The notes below the pieces were generated by a model, which had not been told where the DNA came from, made no database searches, and saw nothing but the letters and a program-made list of their open reading frames with translations. Below, one piece after another: positions 2,994-60,232 of a DNA stretch of 64,000 bases. Made by a program: the position numbers and the translations under genes. Position 1 is the first letter of the stretch. The number at the start of each line of letters is the position of its first letter. Origin of the DNA: Okeania sp. SIO2F5 (GTDB taxonomy: Bacteria > Cyanobacteriota > Cyanobacteriia > Cyanobacteriales > Microcoleaceae); contig NZ_JAAHGU010000008.1 of assembly GCF_010692685.1 (NCBI RefSeq), positions 105,619-169,618 on the forward strand, given 5' to 3'.

Positions 2994-4121
2994 TCAAATC
3001 ATTGTTTCTGGTGGAGCAACATCAGAACCAACAACTACACTACCTTTAGTAGATTTTAATCCTGGTGTTTGAGTAGTTTCTAAATGTTTATCTGAGTGAG
3101 CAACTGAATCAGGAGTGTCTAATTTATCTGGAGTGAGATTTGCTCCTGGACTTGGTTGTTGAGACATCCAACTTAGTCCACCTACTGCGCCGGCCATTAA
3201 AGCTGTATAACCTATATATAGATGAATGGGACCTATACCTAATCCAATGTCCTTATTGGAGTTAGACCAAGATGGTATTAAGCTTTGAAGTGGATCGGAC
3301 ATAGGTAAAGCTTCTGCTAAAGCTACTCCATCAAATCCTAAAGCGTTACCTATACGAAAGATGAATCCTCGAAGATATATATCTTCTGGTAGTTCATCTG
3401 TTTGGCCTTTTTCTATAGCTTCTAGATAATGAAGGGGTACGAAGGTTTGTTTATGAATTTGTTTCATAGATAAACAACGCATTTTTCGTGCTTTTTGTAG
3501 TTTTTCCCCTAGTTGCTGTAGGTATGTATTTTTTTCTTCAACTAATAAGGCTGCTTTTTCTGCTTTTGTAAGTTTTTTTCTCCGTTTTCGTCGATTATTT
3601 TCTAGTGGTAACTCTTCTGAGGAGTTTTGGTTATTTTCTGGGAGATGAGTTTCCATATTGTTGGAATCTATGGAGACTAAGGCTGATTCAGTAGTAATTT
3701 CTGATTCTACAGTAGTAGTTAGGTTAGTACTCATGTGTGTTTGAGGTTTATTTTGATGATTTTGGATTAACTGTTCCTGATTCATTTGTTGGTAATTAAT
3801 ACTTTTTTTCTGCTCATTCATATTTTGAGAATGAGAGTAAATTGGGTCTGCTGAAGATGCTTTTTTTTCTGGTATTAATGTTATAGTCAAGTTTTTTAGG
3901 CTAAGTTTTATTGCTTCTAGTCCTAAGACTTTGATTTGAGTTTCGGTGTGAGATACTGCTTCTTCGAGAGAAGTTTTTATGTCAGTCAACATTAGACTAT
4001 AAACTTTGCTAGTATCGGTTTCAGCTTCAATATTACTCAGTAGCGATCGCCAATCATCTTGACAAATTTCTATAGGAATATGACCAGAAAAACTATAGCC
4101 AGATGTAGGTTTTAATTCCAT
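2994..4121 (-). CDS. Helix-turn-helix domain membrane protein (RodZ-like architecture).
   Basis: Central XRE-type HTH (MKQIHKQTFVPLHYLEAIEKGQ...YLRGFIFRIGNALG). A single transmembrane segment lies near the C-terminus. There is an N-terminal low-complexity extension. Confidence 0.5.
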   Translation of the reverse strand: MELKPTSGYSFSGHIPIEICQDDWRSLLSNIEAETDTSKVYSLMLTDIKTSLEEAVSHTETQIKVLGLEAIKLSLKNLTITLIPEKKASSADPIYSHSQNMNEQKKSINYQQMNQEQLIQNHQNKPQTHMSTNLTTTVESEITTESALVSIDSNNMETHLPENNQNSSEELPLENNRRKRRKKLTKAEKAALLVEEKNTYLQQLGEKLQKARKMRCLSMKQIHKQTFVPLHYLEAIEKGQTDELPEDIYLRGFIFRIGNALGFDGVALAEALPMSDPLQSLIPSWSNSNKDIGLGIGPIHLYIGYTALMAGAVGGLSWMSQQPSPGANLTPDKLDTPDSVAHSDKHLETTQTPGLKSTKGSVVVGSDVAPPETMI

Positions 4122-4710
4122 CTTGGGGTTTGAGTTTTATATATTAATAGGAGTAATCTAAGTAATTTATTCTGGAATTTTGTGTTGATTCCGGATATAA
4201 AAAGTGCCAAGATTTAATTTTTGTTTTTTATACAAGTTTCCAAATATTTCAGTTTTTTTACTGGGAAATTTTTCTAACGAGTAACCTTTAATTTATCTAT
4301 TGCGAAATAGTTTTTGCAATTTAAATTTAATAAGGTCATTAATTTTATGTAAATTTTATAGATAGATTAATTACCTACAAATTAATAATCCAGTTAAAGT
4401 ATCAATAGAAAGTGCAATTCTACAAAACCATAACTGAATATACAATTTTTTTTCTCAAATAATTCTTGAATATAGTTTATAGGAGTTTTCAAACAGATAG
4501 GCTACAGTAGCCAAAGCATTCTCCTACTGCCTACTCCCTGGTTTCTCTCTTGGTAAGCATTCCCTTACCTCTACTTCTTCCAGTGTTAAATGCCTCTTAT
4601 GGATCAGCTAAAGCTAACGGCGATGCGGGGTCGCATCGCTACTCCCATGCCCCAAAATAATTTTGTAGTCTACTTAAATGAATTGCGCTGTAAAAACGCA
4701 ATTTTACTGA

Positions 4711-5262
4711 CTACTTATAAACCCGATCTAGTAAAAATAGTCCTACGACAATTCCGATAAAATGAGCCACAATAATGTGAGTATTACCCAACAGTATAAT
4801 AATATCCGGTGTAAATTTTTCTAGTTCTGTAGAGTTAAACATAGACGCTCCCATAACTAAAGATTCGCCTAATAAAATACCTCCAATTGCTTCTGCTCCT
4901 AATAAAGTTAGAGTAATCCCAACCAAGTTCGTAATTAAAGTCCTTTTCACTTGTTGAGTTGTATCTGCCCTGCTTGGCCTTGAAGAATCTGTAGGCGCTC
5001 GTAATTTCCTTGCCAAGCGAGTGTAACGAAATGACAAGAAGATGCTGAATCCTAGTACCACAAGTCCACAAATTGGAAAAAAGAGGCTACCTCCCGCACC
5101 TGCTTCATCCATTTGATTGGGTAAGATGAAAGCAGCAAATAAAAACATGAAGCCTGAAATTACCCCCAATGCAAGTTGGGACCAGAAACAAGTCCATCCG
5201 CCGAACCGGAGTGCATTAGCTACTTGTTTAACAGCAGTTGGTAGGTCTGATAAGTTTGACAT
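4711..5262 (-). CDS. Hypothetical integral membrane protein (cyanobacterial DUF3611-like).
   Basis: Four predicted hydrophobic helices. No catalytic motifs. Family assignment is from memory only. Confidence 0.4.
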   Translation of the reverse strand: MSNLSDLPTAVKQVANALRFGGWTCFWSQLALGVISGFMFLFAAFILPNQMDEAGAGGSLFFPICGLVVLGFSIFLSFRYTRLARKLRAPTDSSRPSRADTTQQVKRTLITNLVGITLTLLGAEAIGGILLGESLVMGASMFNSTELEKFTPDIIILLGNTHIIVAHFIGIVVGLFLLDRVYK

Positions 5263-5698
5263 ATTTATGCTTATGTATTGTCAATACTTTGATATACTCA
5301 CGACGTTGCCCTTGAGAGAAAATGCTATAGATGGTTTTTGTCTCTCTTGCACCGTTCTTGCCAGATTAATCTTGTTTGGTCTAAAGACGCCTTTCCCAGA
5401 TAACCCAAAACATTCTTGGAGTTTTATCAATAAGATACTGGCGCTGACAATATATAGACCTATGGCCTAAGTATATTTAAGACTGTAGCATTTATACTGA
5501 CATTTGAGCAATATGAAAAATATGGACTGATATTCCCATCAGATTCTTAATTAAGGATTACAGGGGGACTTCCTGGGGATATTGGAGCGAATTCTGGCAA
5601 TGTACTTGACTCTAGGTCAACTCCTTTTAAAATATATTTAAGAATTGTAAACAAACAACTCTATTTGTAAACGTTATTAAATTTGAGACCTACTGATT

Positions 5699-5869
5699 AT
5701 GACACAACCACAACCTACTACGAAACCGAATCTGGATGAACCAAAATTCGGTTTTAACCAATATTCAGAACGTCTGAATGGTAGAGCAGCTATGATTGGC
5801 TTTGTATTAACTCTGGCAATTGAATACTTGACTGGAGAAGGTTTACTATCTTGGTTAGGTCTCAATTAA
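5699..5869 (+). CDS. hli: High-light-inducible protein (one-helix CAB/ELIP/HLIP family), 56 aa.
   Basis: Translation is MTQPQPTTKPNLDEPKFGFNQYSERLNGRAAMIGFVLTLAIEYLTGEGLLSWLGLN, with the hallmark ERLNGRAAMIGF chlorophyll-binding helix. It is below the 60-aa cutoff of the ORF track. Confidence 0.8.
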   Translation: MTQPQPTTKPNLDEPKFGFNQYSERLNGRAAMIGFVLTLAIEYLTGEGLLSWLGLN

Positions 5870-6725
5870 AGTTTTAGCTATACCTAAATTATAGAGATCT
5901 ACTATATATAATAGGGATAGAGGTTAAACCAATACAAAAGTCTATCTATCATAATAAATGTTGAAAGAGATCGAGCCGTTATAATCGCAGTTATTTAACG
6001 GTGATACGGGGTCTATAAACTGCGCGGGAAACCTACGCAGACAGCCCCTCATAAATTTCAACCAGAAAAATAATTGAGCAATACGCGCGCACATTTTTGG
6101 CGTTATAATCCTATCAATAGCCATGGGACATATAGCTCGAGAAAAGCTCACCGCCTGCGCTCAGGTAATCTCAGGGTAAAGACGGAGCAAGAAAGCTTCT
6201 GGAGATGGTAGTGGAGGGGGTAAAACTCAGTTTATTTGATTTGTTACCTAGTTAAGAATCTAAGATACAAGAATCTCACGTTATAATCGCACTGATTTAA
6301 CGGTGAGAGTGTCAAAATAAAGATATGGTAAAGTCATATTGTTGGTAAGCCTAATATTGTCAACAACTTACCAACAATCTCTATCTAGTTTGCAATTATA
6401 CTGCATTAATCTAGACTATTCCTAGACTATTCCTAGAGTGAGAATTAGTTTTATGTAGCAATTAATCCACTATTCACCTTGGCAATCTCAATATATGAAT
6501 TGTAATTTTGGCGAAATACCAGGTTATTATAATTTTGTATTAATTGCTCAATATTGAATATTTAAGAAAAAATCAAAACTAATTTACTGATTTAAAGTTT
6601 AATACGGCAGTATAGTTAGTTATACATATCTATAAGAGGATAAAGGGAATTTATTAAATAATTAGCTAAATTCCTTGAAATTCAAGAAACTTACGAGTAA
6701 ATTTAAGTTGTATCAAATTAAGCTT

Positions 6726-38629: not shown

Positions 38630-39164
38630 GGTTTGCTGAAAAAGTCTGATGAGTAAAGGTAGGAGATAAGCATTCAGCATTCAGCGGTCAGCTATTAGCT
38701 TTACTACCTTTAGTGGACAATTTAAGCTCTTTGTTCTTGTGCTTCAGTTCTTTGTTCAAAAATGCAGTAGAAGTTAAGCAAATATTTGGTTCATTCATTT
38801 TTATTGCGCTCGATCTGACTGCTAATAGGTGAATGCTTACGGTAGGAGTAATTTCAGTTATTCAATTATCAGTTACAGCGGATTCTACTTTGGTGAGATA
38901 CACCCATCTTGCATTCATTTAATTGTTAATATCTGTACTTCATGTACTTGGAATCTGCTGTATCAGAAGTTTATCTTTGTTTTATACCCTTGAAAGGGGA
39001 GGCTTGAGACCTTATTTTTTTGTCAGGAGTAAGGAGAATAATAGAGGAGGTAGAAGAAAAAATTGTCTCTTTATTTTTCTGGGTTTAGTTTTTCCTGGAT
39101 ATGGATATTTTAACAGAACCAAAATCAGATTTCTACATCTATAAAAGTTATGAAAAATATCTAA

Positions 39165-39812: not shown

Positions 39813-40811
39813 ATGTCCTTACAACCTTTGACCATTATCAATGACAACTATCAAGCAGTGAAAAATGATGGACAAGATGTGATTGCCGGATTGAAAAAAA
39901 GTCCCAAGAGTTTGCCACCCAAATATTTTTATGACGATCGCGGTTCAGAACTATTTGAAGAAATTTGTCAGTTACCTGAATATTATCCGACTCGTACAGA
40001 AGCTTCTATTCTAGAGGAATATGCAGATGAAATTGCTCAACTAACTGGATGTTGTGAATTAGTAGAATTAGGCAGTGGTAGTTCGACCAAAACTCGCTTG
40101 TTGTTGGATGCTTATCAAAAAATAGGTGGTTCTTTTAGATATGTACCTACTGATGTAAGTGGGGGAATACTCAAAACTAGCGTACTAGAGCTACAAGAAA
40201 AATATCCAAATTTCTCCATTGAGGGATTTATTGGCACTTATGATGAAACTTTAGCTCATCTAAAGTCAAACCCTACACCAACCTTTTTTGAAGGAACTTC
40301 CCTAAACAGAACAATTTGTTTTCTGGGAAGTTCTGCCGGCAATTTTCCACCACAAGAATTCGACCGTTTTTTGAAGCAAGTTACTGATGCTTTAAAACCA
40401 GGAAATTATTTTTTACTTGGCATTGATTTACAAAAACCCAAAGAAATTTTAGAACCAGCTTATAACGATAGTAAAGGAGTTACAGCTGCTTTTAATTTGA
40501 ATATGTTATCCCATTTGAATTGGCGTTTCCAAGGCAATTTTGACCTCGATTTATTTACTCATAAAGCTATTTATAATCAAGAAAAATCGCAAATAGAAAT
40601 GCGTCTTTATTGTCAAGAAAATGTCACATTCTCTTTGGAAATTCTAGATGTAAAGGTTGATTTTGAGAAAGGGGAAAGTATTCTGACTGAAGTTTCTCGC
40701 AAGTTTGATTTAGCAGTTATTCAAACAGAGCTGGAAACAAAAGGACTTAAAGTTAAGAAAATGTGGACAGACCCTAAAAGATGGTTTGGATTAATTCTTT
40801 GTCAAGCTTAA
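39813..40811 (+). CDS. egtD: L-histidine N-alpha-methyltransferase (ergothioneine biosynthesis).
   Basis: Block-for-block match to EgtD: KSLPPKYFYDDRGSELFEEICQLPEYYPTRTE, VELGSGSSTKTRLLL, GVTAAFNLN, ILTEVSRKF. Shine-Dalgarno AGGAG at -12. Confidence 0.85.
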   Translation: MSLQPLTIINDNYQAVKNDGQDVIAGLKKSPKSLPPKYFYDDRGSELFEEICQLPEYYPTRTEASILEEYADEIAQLTGCCELVELGSGSSTKTRLLLDAYQKIGGSFRYVPTDVSGGILKTSVLELQEKYPNFSIEGFIGTYDETLAHLKSNPTPTFFEGTSLNRTICFLGSSAGNFPPQEFDRFLKQVTDALKPGNYFLLGIDLQKPKEILEPAYNDSKGVTAAFNLNMLSHLNWRFQGNFDLDLFTHKAIYNQEKSQIEMRLYCQENVTFSLEILDVKVDFEKGESILTEVSRKFDLAVIQTELETKGLKVKKMWTDPKRWFGLILCQA

Positions 40812-41178
40812 TTTGAAGGAAGAAGGAAGAAGGAAGAAGGAAGAAAAAAAATATGGTAAACATTTCCTATGGAATGTTGCCCAAAGAGAGGTCATGTCTC
40901 AGCAATTAGTGGGAAAAAACTGTAGGGTTTTGGTTTCCAAATTCCTACGGTAAAATATTAAAACCTATAGCGTTTTCAAATGAAGTGTAAATCTAGATTG
41001 AGGTTTTTTATCATAAAAATAATCCTGTCTTGAGTGCCTACTAATCCTTGTGGAAAGCTACTACTTAATGTTGTTTTCCTTTACTTTCTTTATTACTTAT
41101 TCACAAAAAAACTGAATCCTAAATCTTAAACACCTTGCAAAAGTAAACAATTAAAATTATTTTCCCGTTAATAACACT

Positions 41179-42522
41179 ATGAACCAGATAAAATCTACTA
41201 CTCCACCAAAACTTGATAATAGTAATACTAACAATAAACTACGCCAAGATATCCTTGATTACTTTAACAATGCTTGGCAACTTGAAGATATTTTGATGAA
41301 CAGTCTAGTTGGTGAAGAAACATTTTATTCCAATCCCGACCCTTTGAGAAATCCTTTAATTTTTTATCTCGGACATTCAGCAGTTTTCTACATCAATAAA
41401 TTAATTCGTGTGGAATTATTAGAAAAACGCCTCAACCCTAACTACGAAATATTATTTGAGCTAGGAGTAGATCCAGAAATACCAGAAGAGTTAGACCAAG
41501 CGATCGCCCATATCAACTGGCCTAAACTTGAAGATGTTTGGCAGTATCGAGAAAAAGTCTATCAAATCATTTTGGACCTAATTGAGAAAACCCCTCTAAA
41601 TCTCCCTATCCATCAAAATCATCCTCTGTGGGCATTGATGATGGGTATCGAACATCAACGCATTCATATCGAAACTTCATCCATGTTGTTTCGGCAACTA
41701 CCTGTAGAAAAAGTAAAACGTCCTAGTAATTGGGAATATGCTCCTACAAATGCTAGGCCAATTAATAATGAAATGGTTGAAGTTTCTGGTGGGGTAGTAA
41801 AAATAGGTAAACCAGAAGATAATCCTACTTTTGGTTGGGATATAGAATATGGCGATCGCCAAGTTGAAGTCTCGTCTTTTGTTGCTAGTAAATATTTAAT
41901 TACTAACGCAGATTTTCTAGAATTTGTCAAGTCTGGTGGTTACGAAAATCAAGATTTTTGGACTCAAGAAAGTTGGCATTGGAAAACTGAAAATAACATC
42001 AAACATCCTAAATTTTGGATAGCTGAAAATGGTGGTTATAAATATCGAGCTATGTTTGATGAAATAGATTTACCCTTAGATTGGCCTGTAGAAGTTAATC
42101 ATTATGAAGCAATGGCATATTGTTGTTGGAAAGGTGAAAATACTCGGTTAATGAGTGAAGCTGAATATAATTTAGCAACTTATGGAAATGGTAAAGAAGT
42201 AGAGGTAGATAATTATAATCTAAATTTTAAATTTGGTTCTCCTACTCCTGTTGGTTTATTAGAAACTGCAAAAAATGAATCGGGATTATATGATTTGCGG
42301 GGTAATGTTTGGGAATGGTTAACTGATAATTTGAATCCTCTTTCAGGATTTAAAACTCATCAACTCTATGAAGATTATTCGGCTCCATTTTTTGATAGTC
42401 AACATAATATGATGTTAGGGGGATGTTGGATAACTAATGGAACAGAAGCTTTGAAATATTATCGTAATTGGTTCCGTCCAAACTTTTATCAACACGCTGG
42501 TTTTAGGATTGTTCAAGGGTAG
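41179..42522 (+). CDS. egtB: EgtB-type sulfoxide synthase (DinB_2 domain plus FGE-sulfatase domain).
   Basis: Iron-binding HQRIHIE (HX3HXE). N-terminal DinB-like (PLIFYLGHSAVFYINKL). C-terminal FGE-like (GGCWITNGTEALKYYRNWFRPNFYQHAGFRIVQG). Confidence 0.8.
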   Translation: MNQIKSTTPPKLDNSNTNNKLRQDILDYFNNAWQLEDILMNSLVGEETFYSNPDPLRNPLIFYLGHSAVFYINKLIRVELLEKRLNPNYEILFELGVDPEIPEELDQAIAHINWPKLEDVWQYREKVYQIILDLIEKTPLNLPIHQNHPLWALMMGIEHQRIHIETSSMLFRQLPVEKVKRPSNWEYAPTNARPINNEMVEVSGGVVKIGKPEDNPTFGWDIEYGDRQVEVSSFVASKYLITNADFLEFVKSGGYENQDFWTQESWHWKTENNIKHPKFWIAENGGYKYRAMFDEIDLPLDWPVEVNHYEAMAYCCWKGENTRLMSEAEYNLATYGNGKEVEVDNYNLNFKFGSPTPVGLLETAKNESGLYDLRGNVWEWLTDNLNPLSGFKTHQLYEDYSAPFFDSQHNMMLGGCWITNGTEALKYYRNWFRPNFYQHAGFRIVQG

Positions 42523-56195: not shown

Positions 56196-56639
56196 ATACC
56201 TGTAACTCATCTGGAAGATACTCTAAGTAAAATCTGCAAATTGACGGATTTTCATTATGGTTAAATTTGGTTACCTAACCGGGAAAATAATTTATTAGAA
56301 CTTAGCCCTTATCACCATATTGTTGTGGGTAATTACCAAGATAATTTAGAAAAATTTCACCTCTGTAGTCAAGACTTTATCATATCTGAAGGTGAAGGAT
56401 TACCTGGACGAGTTTGGTTATACAAACAGCCGGAATGGATACTAAATGTCTCGGTTGAATCGGAAGGATATTTTTTGAGAAATCAAATTGCTAAAGCTTT
56501 TGGAGTTAGAACTGGCTTTGCTGTTCCTATGATAATCGAGGAAAAAGTATTAATGATTCTTGCTTTTTTTGCTTGTGATATTCGCTCTTATTCATCTGAT
56601 ATTTTAGCACTAGCAATGGATGCAACAATACACTTCTAA
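56196..56639 (+). pseudogene. GAF-domain gene, apparently frameshifted.
   Basis: The C-terminal two thirds of a GAF fold is intact at 56325-56639 (...GEGLPGRVWLYKQPEWILNV...GFAVPMI...). An N-terminal GAF-like segment (LEDTLSKICKLTDFHYG) lies in another frame at 56196-56250, followed by stops. Confidence 0.4.
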
Positions 56640-57014
56640 ACTTTTCTTGGAGTAATTGATACAGCAGATTCCAAGTAGATGAAGTACAGATATTAACAAT
56701 TAAATGTTTCTAGTGCGGGCATCTTGCTCGCTAAGGTAAGGAACTCATCTTAGGAACTGATATGAATCCAGTAATTTTCCCAACTATATGAGAAAATCAT
56801 AGATAAAAATCAGATTAATATGACTACTAAAAATCCATATATGAATCTAAGTTGCTAGTAATGTTTATCCTAAATTTATTTATGGGGTTTAGACAGTAAG
56901 AAAAAATAACTTTTACCAAAAAATTGGGTTTAACGCCTCGCCCTAGAAGGGCGACTTTTTAGTGGTTTTTTTTTAATAAATATGTTATCGTGCTGTTTAG
57001 TTTAGATAGGAATT

Positions 57015-58205
57015 ATGAAAGCTAGATTTAAGTATCGTATCTATCCAACACCGGGACAAAAATACTGATTAGCAAAGCTATTTGGTTGTGTCCGTGTGGT
57101 TTGGAATGATAGCCTAGCTGTTGTCAAGAAAAATATAGATCGGGAGAAAAGAAACCCACGAATTCTCAACTACAAAAACAGTTTATCACTCAATCGAAAA
57201 ATACTGAAGACAGAGAATGGTTATCAGAAGTTTCTGCTATACCATTGCAGCAATCTTTAAATGATTAAAACCAGGCTTATCAAAATTTTTTCAAATCGAC
57301 AAAAGGTCAACAGAAAGGTAGACCTATAAAACCTCCTAAATTTAAAAGTAGAAAGTCAAAGCAAACTGCTAGGTTTACAAAAGGAGGATTTAAAGTTGGT
57401 CAACATAAAGTTTATTTGGCTAAGATTGGAAAGCTGAAAATAGTCTGGTCAAGAGAGTTACCCGCTGCCCCATCATCAGTAACAGTAATCAAAGATTCAG
57501 CTCATAGATATTTCTTGAGTTTTGTAGTAGAAATACAACCAGAAACTTTACCTAAAACTGATAATTCAGTAGGTATAGATTTAGGCATTTCAACCTTTGC
57601 TACATTTAGTGACGGTACAAAAGTTGATGATCCTAAGCCACTTAAGAAAAGAATTAAGAAGCATCGAAAGTTAAGTAAGTCATTATCTCATAAAACTAAG
57701 GGGTCTAGAAGGTATGAGAAAGCGAGAGTAAGAGTTGCCAAATTTTCCTACAGAATGCTACGCAAACATGCCAAACTAAAAGATACGCTTGACAGATTTT
57801 CTGCATAAATTATCTACTAAAATAATTCGTGAAAACCAAACAGTTGTTTTAGAAGATTTAAACGTTTCTGGTATGGTGAAAAAGCGGTGCGACCCCGCGA
57901 CGACGACAGCTCGCTTGCGGAACGCGCACCAAGAGACCGTAAATTATCCAGAGCCATATCAGATTTAGGTTGGAGACAATTTAGGACACTGTTAGAAGGA
58001 AAAACTGAAAAATACGGTCGTGATTTTAGAGTAATTAGCAAGTGGGAACCAACATCACAAAAGTGTTCATGTTGTGGATTCAAGGGTGGAAAGTTAGACC
58101 TTTCAGTAAGGGAGTGGGAATGTCTCAACTGTGGTACAAAACACGACCGTGATGAAAATGCAGCAATAAATATATTGGTCGCGGGCGGGCAGTCCGAGAC
58201 AAAAA
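57015..58205 (+). pseudogene. tnpB: IS200/IS605-family (IS1341-type) tnpB, disrupted by multiple frameshifts, stops and a 51-bp GC-rich insertion.
   Basis: Pieces lie in three frames: MKARFKYRIYPTPGQK (57015), LAKLFGCVRVVWNDSLAV, the 57416-57808 ORF, ...VVLEDLNVSGMVKK, then [insertion], then LSRAISDLGWRQF...CSCCGF...CLNCG...RDENAAINIL. A GC-rich structured 3' flank runs 58190-58375. Confidence 0.75.
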
Positions 58206-58378
58206 ACGGACGCGGAGGCAAGCGTAACCTACCCCCATCCCCTCCCGGGAGGGGAGCAAGAGGGGTGGGTGCAGCAGCCTGTGTTAGCGGAGCTTTGCGC
58301 CAGCAAAACGTCAACCCGCCGAGGAGCTACGGCTCGGTAGGAATCCCCCTGCCTTTAGGCCGGGGAGGATGTCAAAGG

Positions 58379-58957
58379 TTAATTATGCTCAAAATTATTC
58401 CCTTCAATGGAAATTTCTTCTAGGTCAACATAATTTACTTTCCCTAATTTAACTTCCTTGGGCACATTAGTTACCTCATATTTAGTACCTTTGGGAACTA
58501 AAACTTCGCTTTCACTATACATTGCAGAAAAATCACTAATAGACACTCCCGAATGATTATGCTTTACCCGAATCACTACTTGGTAACAATGACCGGAATA
58601 AGTCTCAGCAATCTTTGGATCGCAAGTAAAACTGGTGACTGAATCTAAAGTATAATCTCCGTGGGGTTTTAATTGTTTAATAAAAGATTTTATTGATTTT
58701 TCACTAAAAGACATACCCCGATAAATATCACCATCATAAGCGGGCATTTTGTGCATAAAATTGTTAAGAATTTTAACATTCCCTTCGTTTTTTCCTTCTT
58801 TATCTGCCCGTCTAATTTTACGAAAATCTGAAGTAGTAAATCTTTCAAGTGCGGATAATGATTTTGCTGCTTCAATAGAACTCATTCCGCTTAATTTAGC
58901 AACCTGAGCAACGAGTTTGTTGTTTTCGCAAAGTACAACATTGTTCATAAAGTTCAT
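58379..58957 (-). CDS. ADP-ribosyltransferase-like protein, R-S-E class (C2/C3/Vip2-type fold), 192 aa.
   Basis: Motifs occur in the order YRG (DIYRGMSF), S-T-S-like (DSVTSFT), and a Glu-x-Glu ARTT-loop (MYSESEVLVPKGTKYEV, compare iota toxin EYEVLL). No signal peptide. No partner ORF of 60 aa or more nearby. Confidence 0.5.
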   Translation of the reverse strand: MNFMNNVVLCENNKLVAQVAKLSGMSSIEAAKSLSALERFTTSDFRKIRRADKEGKNEGNVKILNNFMHKMPAYDGDIYRGMSFSEKSIKSFIKQLKPHGDYTLDSVTSFTCDPKIAETYSGHCYQVVIRVKHNHSGVSISDFSAMYSESEVLVPKGTKYEVTNVPKEVKLGKVNYVDLEEISIEGNNFEHN

Positions 58958-59714
58958 CTCAACTCGATACTTTTTATTATCTCCTAAAATTACTCAAAAA
59001 GTAACCCATTCATTTAGATGATTTTTGCCTCATCCATATGGGTGAGTTTGAAGCTTAAAATTGATCCTGATCTAATATTGCCAGCAATTTCTCAATAATT
59101 CTTCAAGAAAATTCAATAAGTATAAATAACTAATAAGTCCTAATAAAATACTATAAATTCTAATTTAATTAGTAAATTAGTAAGAAATAATCTATCAATA
59201 CTTTCCCGATCAACTTGTAAAAGTACAAACTTTAGCAATAACTACCTGGACTTAAATCTTAGCAAGACCTTCCTAAAATATGAAGATAAATTACGGTATT
59301 TTTGAGTGTAGGTTATGACCATGTTATATCATGTCAGCTCGGGTAGCGCGATAGAACTCCGTTCCGCGCTGCGAACATAAAATTCTTAGGTGGCGCGATG
59401 GTATAGCGCTGCGCGCAGGCAACAGCTCATTTGGGAACAGCTCCGGAAGGGGGAATAAAAAGCTGATAATATAAGAATTTTAGCTATTGGACAACTCCTG
59501 CAATTTGTAAATATGCCAGCGAACATTGCTATAGGTGTAAATTCAAGAGGGAACACTGGAAACGGAGCGAAAATGTGAGATATTTCTTCAATATTTAGGG
59601 GAGAATATTTTTATGATACTTAATCATCCGGATATGATGTTATACCAAGTGTGATAAATGTTTGCTACATTATTTTTATACCTAATTAAATGGATTTGAT
59701 ATCAAAGATAGCTC

Positions 59715-60232
59715 GAAAAACTATAACGTTGGAGTTTTTTTGATGGCTCTATTCTATTGCTAGAGTCTGGCAAAAGCCTTAATTTACCGTCGGTACAATA
59801 ATTCCATTCCCCAAGGCGATCGCTTTTGTGGGTCGGTTAAACATCTCAAAACTATTGTACAATAGATAAATAAGAACCCCGTTGAAAAACTATAACGTTG
59901 GAGTTTTTTTTGATTTATCTATTTATTTTATTGCTAGAGTCTGGCAAAAGCCTTAATTTACCGTCGGTACAATAATTCCATTCCCCAAGGCGATCGCTTT
60001 TGTGGGTCGGTTAAACATCTCAAAACTATTGTACAATAGATAAATAAGAACCCCGTTGAAAAACTATAACGTTGGAGTTTTTTTGATGGCTCTATTCTAT
60101 TGCTAGAGTCTGGCAAAAGCCTTAATTTACCGTCGGTGCAATAATTCCATTCCCCAAGATGATCGCTTTTGTGGGTAAGAATTCCGTCGAAAAACTATAA
60201 CGTTGGAGTTTTTTTTGATTTATAGCAATGTG
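59715..60232. repeat. About 3.3 tandem units of a ~172-bp non-coding repeat.
   Basis: The unit begins gaaaaactataacgttggagttttttt and contains ccgtcggtacaataattccattccccaaggcgatcgcttttgtgggtcggttaaac and the palindrome ctattgtacaatag. Confidence 0.8.

Follow-up and report, generated by a model that had tools for sequence, protein, structure and literature searches.

The window analysed here, a stretch of 64,000 nucleotides (nt) from Okeania sp. SIO2F5 (contig NZ_JAAHGU010000008.1), carries on its minus strand a gene (58379-58948) whose product is, as judged from sequence profiles, motifs and a predicted fold, a mono-ADP-ribosyltransferase (ART) of the R-S-E clade (C3/VIP2/Alt-like; PF03496) with predicted catalytic activity. 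We favour, at a probability of roughly 60%, the reading that this 189-residue protein is an intact ART maintained by selection, captured from a module of cyanophage heads, with no partner gene, and acting inside the cell that produces it.

The minus-strand open reading frame (ORF) of 192 codons at 58379-58957, as described in an earlier note made from the letters of the window, is confirmed as a frame, but its start requires correction. The first ATG (58957) is replaced by GTG, ATA, ATT or TTA in most orthologues, whereas the second methionine (58948; MNNVVL...) is kept; since the first ATG is not conserved and the second methionine is, comparison of the orthologues places the true start at 58948, giving a product of 189 rather than 192 residues. 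The coding sequence then comprises 189 codons ending in a TAA stop codon (58379-58381), preceded by three additional in-frame codons, ATG AAC TTT (58949-58957), which account for the longer ORF. Residues R77, S106, E146 and E148 of the 189-residue protein correspond to R80, S109, E149 and E151 of the 192-residue ORF; the latter numbering is used below.

In a Pfam scan reporting matches up to an expectation value (E) of 10, only three families were returned, namely PF03496 (ADP-ribosyltransferase exoenzyme, ADPrib_exo_Tox) at 30.1 bits against a gathering cut-off of 23.4 (E 3.7e-7), PF01129 slightly under its cut-off (21.1 against 22.3), and a weak match to DUF4026_N. A sequence search of the PDB yielded R-S-E ARTs only (XopAI, Tre1, Vis, SpvB, C3 and ExoT), and a profile built from 19 homologues matched Vis with an E of 6.9e-8. 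The three motifs, Y79-R80-G81, T108-S109-F110-T111 and E149-S150-E151, are all present in the ORF; alignment to Vis pairs Y79-R80-G81 with YRG, S109-F110-T111 with S-T-S, and E149-S150-E151 with E-A-E, and in the alignment to Tre1 the YRG and E-A-E pair with the YRG and E149-S-E151 of the window protein. Among the 19 homologues S109, E149 and E151 are invariant and R80 is nearly so; in a set of 20 sequences at ~30-50% identity the arginine, the serine and the second glutamate are invariant, whilst the first glutamate is kept in at least 90%.

The fold prediction agrees with this assignment. An AlphaFold2 model (predicted local distance difference test, pLDDT, 78.7; predicted TM-score, pTM, 0.74) was compared with the PDB using Foldseek, and the top 50 matches were all R-S-E ARTs (probability 1.0; TM-scores 0.43-0.71), including Vis, Tre1, C3bot, ExoS/T, XopAI, HopU1 and VIP2. 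The closest solved structures are Vis from Vibrio splendidus (PDB 4XZJ/4Y1W; Foldseek E 3.5e-10) and Tre1 from Serratia proteamaculans (6DRE/6DRH; 6.5e-10), which share with the window protein the aligned YRG, S-x-S/T and E-x-E motifs and a size of ~170-220 residues, but only 17-21% identity. The ART call of the earlier note, made from the three R-S-E motifs, is thus borne out: the catalytic residues align with those of Vis in the profile comparison, and the best matches are ARTs. Arginine is probably the acceptor, by analogy with the nearest solved relatives and from the E-x-E motif, which is preceded by an aromatic residue (Y-S-E-S-E) as in the arginine-specific Vis, Tre1 and VIP2. A dinitrogenase reductase ART of the DraT type was considered and rejected, there being no Pfam match to the DraT family (whose model we take to be PF07357) at E up to 10, nor any DraG or ADP-ribosylhydrolase (ARH) gene among the scanned ORFs of the 33-62 kb part of the window.

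The earlier note had missed that outside the cyanobacterial clade the nearest relatives are ART modules joined to portal or Mu-F minor-head proteins of phages, for the most part in cyanophages and in a cyanobacterial genome. Among profiles the best match is to PHROG 16619, a 'minor head protein' family (E 1.2e-26, over positions 831-995 of the 1440 in the profile), followed by other head or virion families and then by the Alt-type PHROG 832, 'RNA polymerase ADP-ribosylase' (E 3.7e-5). An exhaustive hidden Markov model search gave 2,834 cluster representatives at E up to 1e-3; the best of those outside the cyanobacterial clade are fusions of a portal protein with ART (P0019, of Phormidium/Stenomitos, and P0028) and of Mu-F with ART (P0021 and P0023). 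P0019 contains two ART modules, each matching residues 10-180 at 30-36% identity, N-terminal helices included. In 50,697 phage records the only matches were the minor-head proteins of cyanophage PSS2 and Planktothrix phage PaV-LD, whilst among viral structures the best matches are to proteins of the portal, of head morphogenesis and of the minor capsid (TM-scores 0.69-0.73; root-mean-square deviation ~3 Å), which fit more tightly than any solved toxin. Small stand-alone relatives also occur in phage genomes, one of them beside a terminase gene.

With the phage portal and Mu-F proteins (PSS2, PaV-LD, and WP_190450554 of Phormidium/Stenomitos) the window protein shares a full-length module, helices as well as R-S-E core, at 27-36% identity; unlike them it has no anchor, lies outside any phage or prophage, and is encoded by a single-copy, vertically inherited chromosomal gene. 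No portal, Mu-F or terminase fusion or adjacency, and no phage or prophage location, was found for the Okeania ART. In published comparative genomics, ARTs of the Alt/VIP2 family frequently form one protein with MuF or portal domains, or have their genes next to those for packaging, from which packaging into the head and injection have been deduced (PMC9503650). Where effector domains of this type occur in hosts with no contextual association, they have been read as deriving from remnants of such elements, possibly with a defensive role (PMC5512222). The comparisons suggest that the gene represents one excised module of a head-packaged effector.

In the mechanism that we propose, an ancestor of several oscillatorian lineages would have captured a cyanophage ART module, minus its head-packaging anchor, from sources in which such modules are fused to portal or Mu-F/SPP1-gp7 minor-head proteins and injected with the phage DNA. 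The captured gene would from then on have been passed down alone on the chromosome, under a conserved promoter and leader of its own. Its product would use nicotinamide adenine dinucleotide (NAD+) to mono-ADP-ribosylate a specific protein target, with an arginine side chain favoured, and, lacking a signal peptide, a trafficking domain and a packaging anchor, would act within its own cell. Since no immunity gene is linked to it, the enzyme would be more an Alt-type reprogramming enzyme than a lethal toxin; the modification would be tolerated, or expression would be tightly held through the invariant upstream region, and the purpose would be host regulation or interference with infecting phages.

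Phage T4 Alt, a head-packaged ART which modifies Arg265 of the RNA polymerase alpha subunit, is far larger (~680 residues). It shares with the Okeania ART its R-S-E clade and a phage-head association, the relationship being distant. Alt is a reprogramming, non-lethal enzyme without an immunity partner (PMC5512222). A further parallel is offered by Bacteroides stercoris, in whose prophage an ART, Bxa, is encoded next to its two immunity genes, bsi and BAH, and bears a delivery domain at its N-terminus (PMC11699363). Bxa and the Okeania ART would both be phage-derived R-S-E enzymes housed in a bacterial genome; unlike Bxa, the Okeania ART has no delivery domain, no bsi or BAH neighbours, and no prophage around it.

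A scan of a genome collection with one representative genome per species found 26 related loci. The window protein is 100% identical to that of Okeania hirsuta PAB10Feb10-1; the orthologues of other Okeania, of Dapis and of Trichodesmium-labelled or Microcoleaceae metagenome-assembled genomes (MAGs) are 73-95% identical to it. A clade at ~52% identity comprises Limnoraphis, Lyngbya PCC 8106, L. aestuarii and Capilliphycus, and remoter stand-alone members are found in, among others, Spirulina, Floridanema and Lyngbya CCY1209. In public databases orthologues already bear the annotation 'ADP-ribosyltransferase'. Over 13 intact orthologues (78 pairs) the ratio of non-synonymous to synonymous divergence (dN/dS) is 0.20 overall, rising from 0.14 for the catalytic core to 0.22 for the N-terminal helices and 0.35 for the C-terminal tail; the ART gene is intact and is kept by long-term purifying selection.

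Several points nonetheless weigh against the reading of a captured, selected enzyme modifying a protein of its own cell. The dN of the ART is 2-6 times that of syntenic neighbours in the same genome pairs, and its dS relative to Okeania sp. SIO2C2 (locus L002) is ~3 times higher than that of syntenic genes (0.33 vs 0.11); relative to locus L001 the dS is similar to that of syntenic genes (0.17 vs 0.13-0.15). The protein thus appears to be comparatively fast-evolving, and alleles may be exchanged within the genus; such a rate would be less in line with a housekeeping regulator than with allele exchange or a gene engaged in conflict. Stops or frameshifts have turned two orthologues into pseudogenes, one in a Microcoleaceae MAG (L022, 2765-3340) and one in a Trichodesmium-labelled MAG (L030, 6001-6560), and some lineages can therefore do without the gene. 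The direction of transfer, from phage to host, is suggested by the far larger size and greater diversity of the phage-fused population, in a comparison that is unrooted.

Additionally, it is only by the E-x-E motif and by comparison with the closest solved structures that arginine is suggested as the acceptor, whereas the R-S-E enzymes also include NADases and modifiers of DNA or RNA (PMC9503650). On this ground the protein could be an R-S-E-fold enzyme which does not modify protein arginine at all, namely an NAD+ glycohydrolase or a modifier of nucleic acids or small molecules, and specificity is indeed not readable from sequence alone. The intact Y-S-E-S-E motif shared with arginine-specific enzymes and the protein-modifying activity of the nearest structural neighbours speak against this alternative, which we consider quite improbable. 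Papers on Tne5 reportedly describe further NADase or nucleic-acid-modifying members of the clade.

The gene might instead be a non-functional relic of a decayed prophage, or the cargo of an adjoining insertion sequence (IS), the latter having been raised in the earlier note. The phage affinity of the family, the tnpB remnant beside the gene, the presence of TnpB also beside distant relatives at two other loci (L006 and L037) and the two pseudogenes would all be in keeping with a relic or cargo. A dN/dS of 0.20 with catalytic residues invariant across genera would not be, nor would the absence of phage genes from the ORFs that were scanned in the window at 33-62 kb, nor the base composition, which is native: the ART gene has a G+C content of 33.9% (24% at third codon positions, GC3), like its neighbours and the window average of 34.6%. 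We regard a relic or cargo gene as extremely improbable.

The cargo idea in particular is refuted by orthologous loci that are free of the IS. The element belongs to the IS200/IS605 family (IS1341-type, no tnpA), and its plus-strand tnpB (57015-58200; N-terminus MKARFKYRIYP) is dead, as the earlier note had claimed, with an in-frame stop and at least three frameshifts, OrfB_IS605 lying in two frames and the TNB zinc-finger domain in the third. The right end (58190-58373, plus strand) is G+C-rich, terminates in GGAGGATGTC and lies outside the ART gene, separated from its stop codon by a 5-nt spacer, AAAGG (58374-58378). The IS occupies this site only in the window and in locus L009, both O. hirsuta; it is absent from 20 other loci with an alignable ART 3′ end, where homology ends at or within ~30 nt of the stop codon. 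Since the right end is 5 nt from the stop codon and homology to IS-free loci picks up again at 58374-58379, the element went in 5 nt beyond the ART stop and left the C-terminus (...EGNNFEHN) unaltered. On these alignments the dead tnpB element is a recent, unrelated insertion in O. hirsuta which left the ART undamaged.

Within Okeania the synteny around the ART is kept, in the order TldD, HisKA, (MFS, GAF), ART, a non-coding tandem array and then variable genes, and the neighbours are chromosomal (TldD, HisKA, MFS, GAF, NUDIX). In Limnoraphis the ART lies between glyoxalase and SSF genes, in Spirulina amid XisH/XisI genes with an SSF transporter 1.9 kb away, and in another cyanobacterial lineage between a polysaccharide lyase and DUF3611. 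The SSF-ART linkage of Spirulina and Limnoraphis is taken to be ancestral because the two SSF proteins are 66% identical; an ancestral FGGY-ART synteny between Spirulina and Okeania was rejected, the kinases being unrelated paralogues at only 21% identity. No neighbour gene is common to all lineages among the loci compared across genera, and in every chromosomal locus examined the ART is solitary behind a long intergenic region.

Upstream of the gene, a leader/core-promoter block of 60 nt (58949-59008, minus strand) is nearly invariant in Okeania and Dapis and more conserved than the coding sequence. It holds a TTACT-N5-AGTAA palindrome (58990-59004), AGGAGATAAT at 58976-58985, which may be read as a -10-like GATAAT or a Shine-Dalgarno-like AGGAG, and GTATCGAGTTGAG at 58958-58970. 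A scan for a consensus sigma-70 promoter in the conserved leader found none, the -10-like GATAAT being our own reading. The RNAalifold consensus of the leader is weak (-6.5 kcal/mol; 1 of 23 pairs covarying), with no covariation-supported RNA structure by this method, and the leader has no match to an Rfam family. A conserved promoter, operator and 5′ untranslated region would be a simpler interpretation than a structured RNA. The conservation extends further upstream (59009-59150, minus strand) and includes a AAGAATTGTTGAGAAATTGCTG block common to Okeania and most Dapis loci; this segment is probably regulatory DNA.

These upstream features bear on the possibility that the ART is the toxin of a toxin-antitoxin or abortive-infection system, its neutraliser being unlinked or an upstream RNA (type I/III), such that phage infection would free the ART to kill or arrest the cell. 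ParT, DarT and CmdT are existing ART toxins of this kind (PMC9503650), and the nearly invariant upstream 60 nt, an antisense TTG frame overlapping the start codon in most loci and the faster evolution of the ART relative to its neighbours would all be compatible with such a role. Against it, PADLOC returned no families at E up to 10, the Pfam scan no match to ParT, DarT or RES, and the ART loci are not defence islands. In the window no ORF of at least 60 residues flanks the gene, as the earlier note had observed. A small antitoxin ORF, for which it advised a search, found no support: when the 300-nt flanks of 15 orthologous loci were scanned on both strands for ORFs of at least 15 residues, none was conserved on the ART strand. 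The recurring antisense TTG frame, 33 residues long, was rejected as a small antitoxin; it is broken in 5 of the 15 loci and is best regarded as a by-product of the invariant leader, which itself lacks a covariation-supported RNA structure or Rfam match. Purifying selection and the solitary state of the gene in every chromosomal lineage examined leave a decayed toxin-antitoxin toxin, as proposed earlier, unsupported, and we consider a toxin of either system unlikely.

Export presents a different possibility, in which the protein would be a secreted or contact-delivered exotoxin like C3 or Tre1, leaving the cell by a non-classical route and directed against competitors or grazers. The ART domain is structurally like C3bot, Vis, ExoS/T and Tre1, and Okeania and Lyngbya are toxin-rich benthic mat formers. 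Vis is an exotoxin and Tre1 a PAAR-linked effector of the type VI secretion system with the adjacent immunity gene Tri1, whereas the Okeania gene has neither export determinant nor immunity gene. The maximum Kyte-Doolittle value over 15 residues of the window protein is 0.82; there is no hydrophobic segment by this measure and therefore no membrane anchor and, as had been stated before, no signal peptide. Pfam and the module alignment reveal no trafficking or extra domain (PAAR, MIX, LXG or Rhs), the whole 189 residues being accounted for by the ART module. No secretion-system genes lie nearby. Nor is there an adjacent immunity gene, of ARH type or a binding inhibitor, unlike Tre1-Tri1 or Bxa-Bsi/BAH; that search covered the locus neighbourhoods and the 64-kb window, and neither an ARH gene nor a macrodomain was present among the ORFs scanned at 33-62 kb. 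An exotoxin is very unlikely.

The captured enzyme acting in its own cell may have gone further towards host function. The gene would then have been domesticated before several oscillatorian genera split and would now serve for arginine ADP-ribosylation of an endogenous cyanobacterial protein, a proposal that we consider decidedly unlikely; a regulatory ART, as suggested in the earlier note, would be one of the two purposes compatible with the favoured reading. Candidate targets would be RNA polymerase, by analogy with Alt, and, more speculatively, the nitrogenase Fe protein. Diel modification of the Fe protein, visible as a mobility shift, is reported for non-heterocystous diazotrophs such as Trichodesmium and is not known to have a DraT/DraG explanation. 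Several ART carriers (Okeania, Lyngbya and Limnoraphis) are non-heterocystous diazotrophs, and the phylogenetic signal for an Fe-protein target is confounded with ancestry. The species-representative scan found no match in Trichodesmium erythraeum, which counts against this target.

The enzyme family, its association with phage heads and the idea of host capture are already published, and orthologues are already annotated; our result is mainly a careful classification rather than a discovery. What is new is the delineation of a vertically inherited, partner-less clade under selection in oscillatorian cyanobacteria, together with the corrected start codon and an IS shown to be incidental. ADP-ribosylation figures prominently in the conflict between phages and hosts and is hardly known in cyanobacteria, and the gene would offer a clean case of a phage head-injected module kept under selection without an immunity partner. 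Its target could reveal the host process at which cyanophage head ARTs aim, and could show whether the host has reused the module for regulation or for pre-empting infection; a domesticated regulator, if that proposal is correct, would be the first such regulatory modification system in cyanobacteria.

The remaining parts of the IS merit a brief description. Its left-end region (56894-57014, plus strand) contains a subterminal hairpin, CGCCCTAGAAGGGCG, at 56939-56953; the left boundary is approximate, and Dapis loci have, on the downstream side of the ART, sequence homologous to the DNA as far as 56893. In a local scan the right end matched Rfam RF00062 (HgcC) with 32.3 bits, under the gathering score of 50 (E 6.6e-6), and the HgcC family has been tied to RNAs from the 3′ ends of IS1341-type tnpB genes (PMC4615843). 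The right end therewith resembles a TnpB omega-RNA scaffold. From the general properties of TnpB systems, a guide would lie at 58374 to ~58393 (plus strand), and since the omega-RNA-like scaffold ends at 58373, such a read-through guide would be antisense to the ART stop codon and last four codons. With TnpB dead, this putative transcript is a curiosity.

A G+C-rich insertion of ~60 nt (57877-57936) lies within tnpB and also stands alone in other loci; this island interrupting tnpB may be a miniature mobile repeat. Further G+C-rich islands in A+T-rich DNA occur at 59337-59430 of the window, a second, partly palindromic block upstream of the ART, and at L001 2812-2860, L018 5698-5752 and L021 10500-10553. 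Okeania sp. SIO2C2 has a duplicate of the final 63 nt of its ART (L002 6571-6762; equivalent to window 58378-58440), which lies ~130 nt downstream of the stop codon inside a larger direct repeat; it looks like the footprint of another insertion or duplication at the same site as the O. hirsuta IS.

TnpB genes adjoin ARTs of this family at three independent, non-orthologous loci: the window (57015-58373), where the element is convergent and dead; L006 (2661-3869), where TnpB overlaps the start of a 259-residue ART; and Floridanema (L037, 5865-7058), where it is intact and 200 nt downstream. The adjacency may simply stem from the abundance of TnpB in filamentous cyanobacteria. Locus L006, from an uncultured cyanobacterial MAG, carries at 3838-6717 two paralogous stand-alone ARTs of 259 and 238 residues, both ~35% identical to the window protein, which flank a methyltransferase and a 202-residue protein with a weak GNAT-like match; it is the sole locus with candidate accessory genes. 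The 202-residue gene, upstream of the divergent paralogue P0018, was rejected as an immunity gene, its GNAT match being sub-threshold and the gene being absent from all other loci.

The non-coding tandem array has a period of 174 nt, occupies 59715-60223 of the window, and lies upstream of the ART in constant orientation in every Okeania locus (elsewhere L001 4370-5793, L012 1254-3497, L002 3899-5234 and L010 4380-5627), with nothing between it and the conserved region upstream of the ART in the IS-free loci L001, L010 and L012. Copy number ranges from 1.7 to 12.9, with 2.7 in the window and 5.3 in L009 of the same species. Each unit contains a perfect 14-bp palindrome, CTATTGTACAATAG, a HIP1 site and an A/T hairpin. 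An array of small RNAs was considered and rejected, as no reading frame of the six is open, folding is weak and falls short of significance (z -1.2 to -1.7) and Rfam gives no match.

Beyond the IS, the GAF-domain ORF of the window (56325-56639, plus strand) comprises 104 residues against 154 in the orthologous gene of L002, the DNA being 97% identical, and the window copy may be N-terminally truncated or disrupted. Just downstream of it, a 50-nt segment (56657-56706) has a 98% identical inverted copy ~18 kb away (38916-38965) and related copies in L002, L017 and L019, and constitutes a small dispersed repeat. Further off, at 39813-42522 (plus strand), a gene for an EgtD-type histidine methyltransferase (Methyltransf_33) adjoins an EgtB-like gene with an FGE-sulfatase domain, followed by two more methyltransferases; the EgtD/EgtB-like pair suggests ergothioneine biosynthesis.

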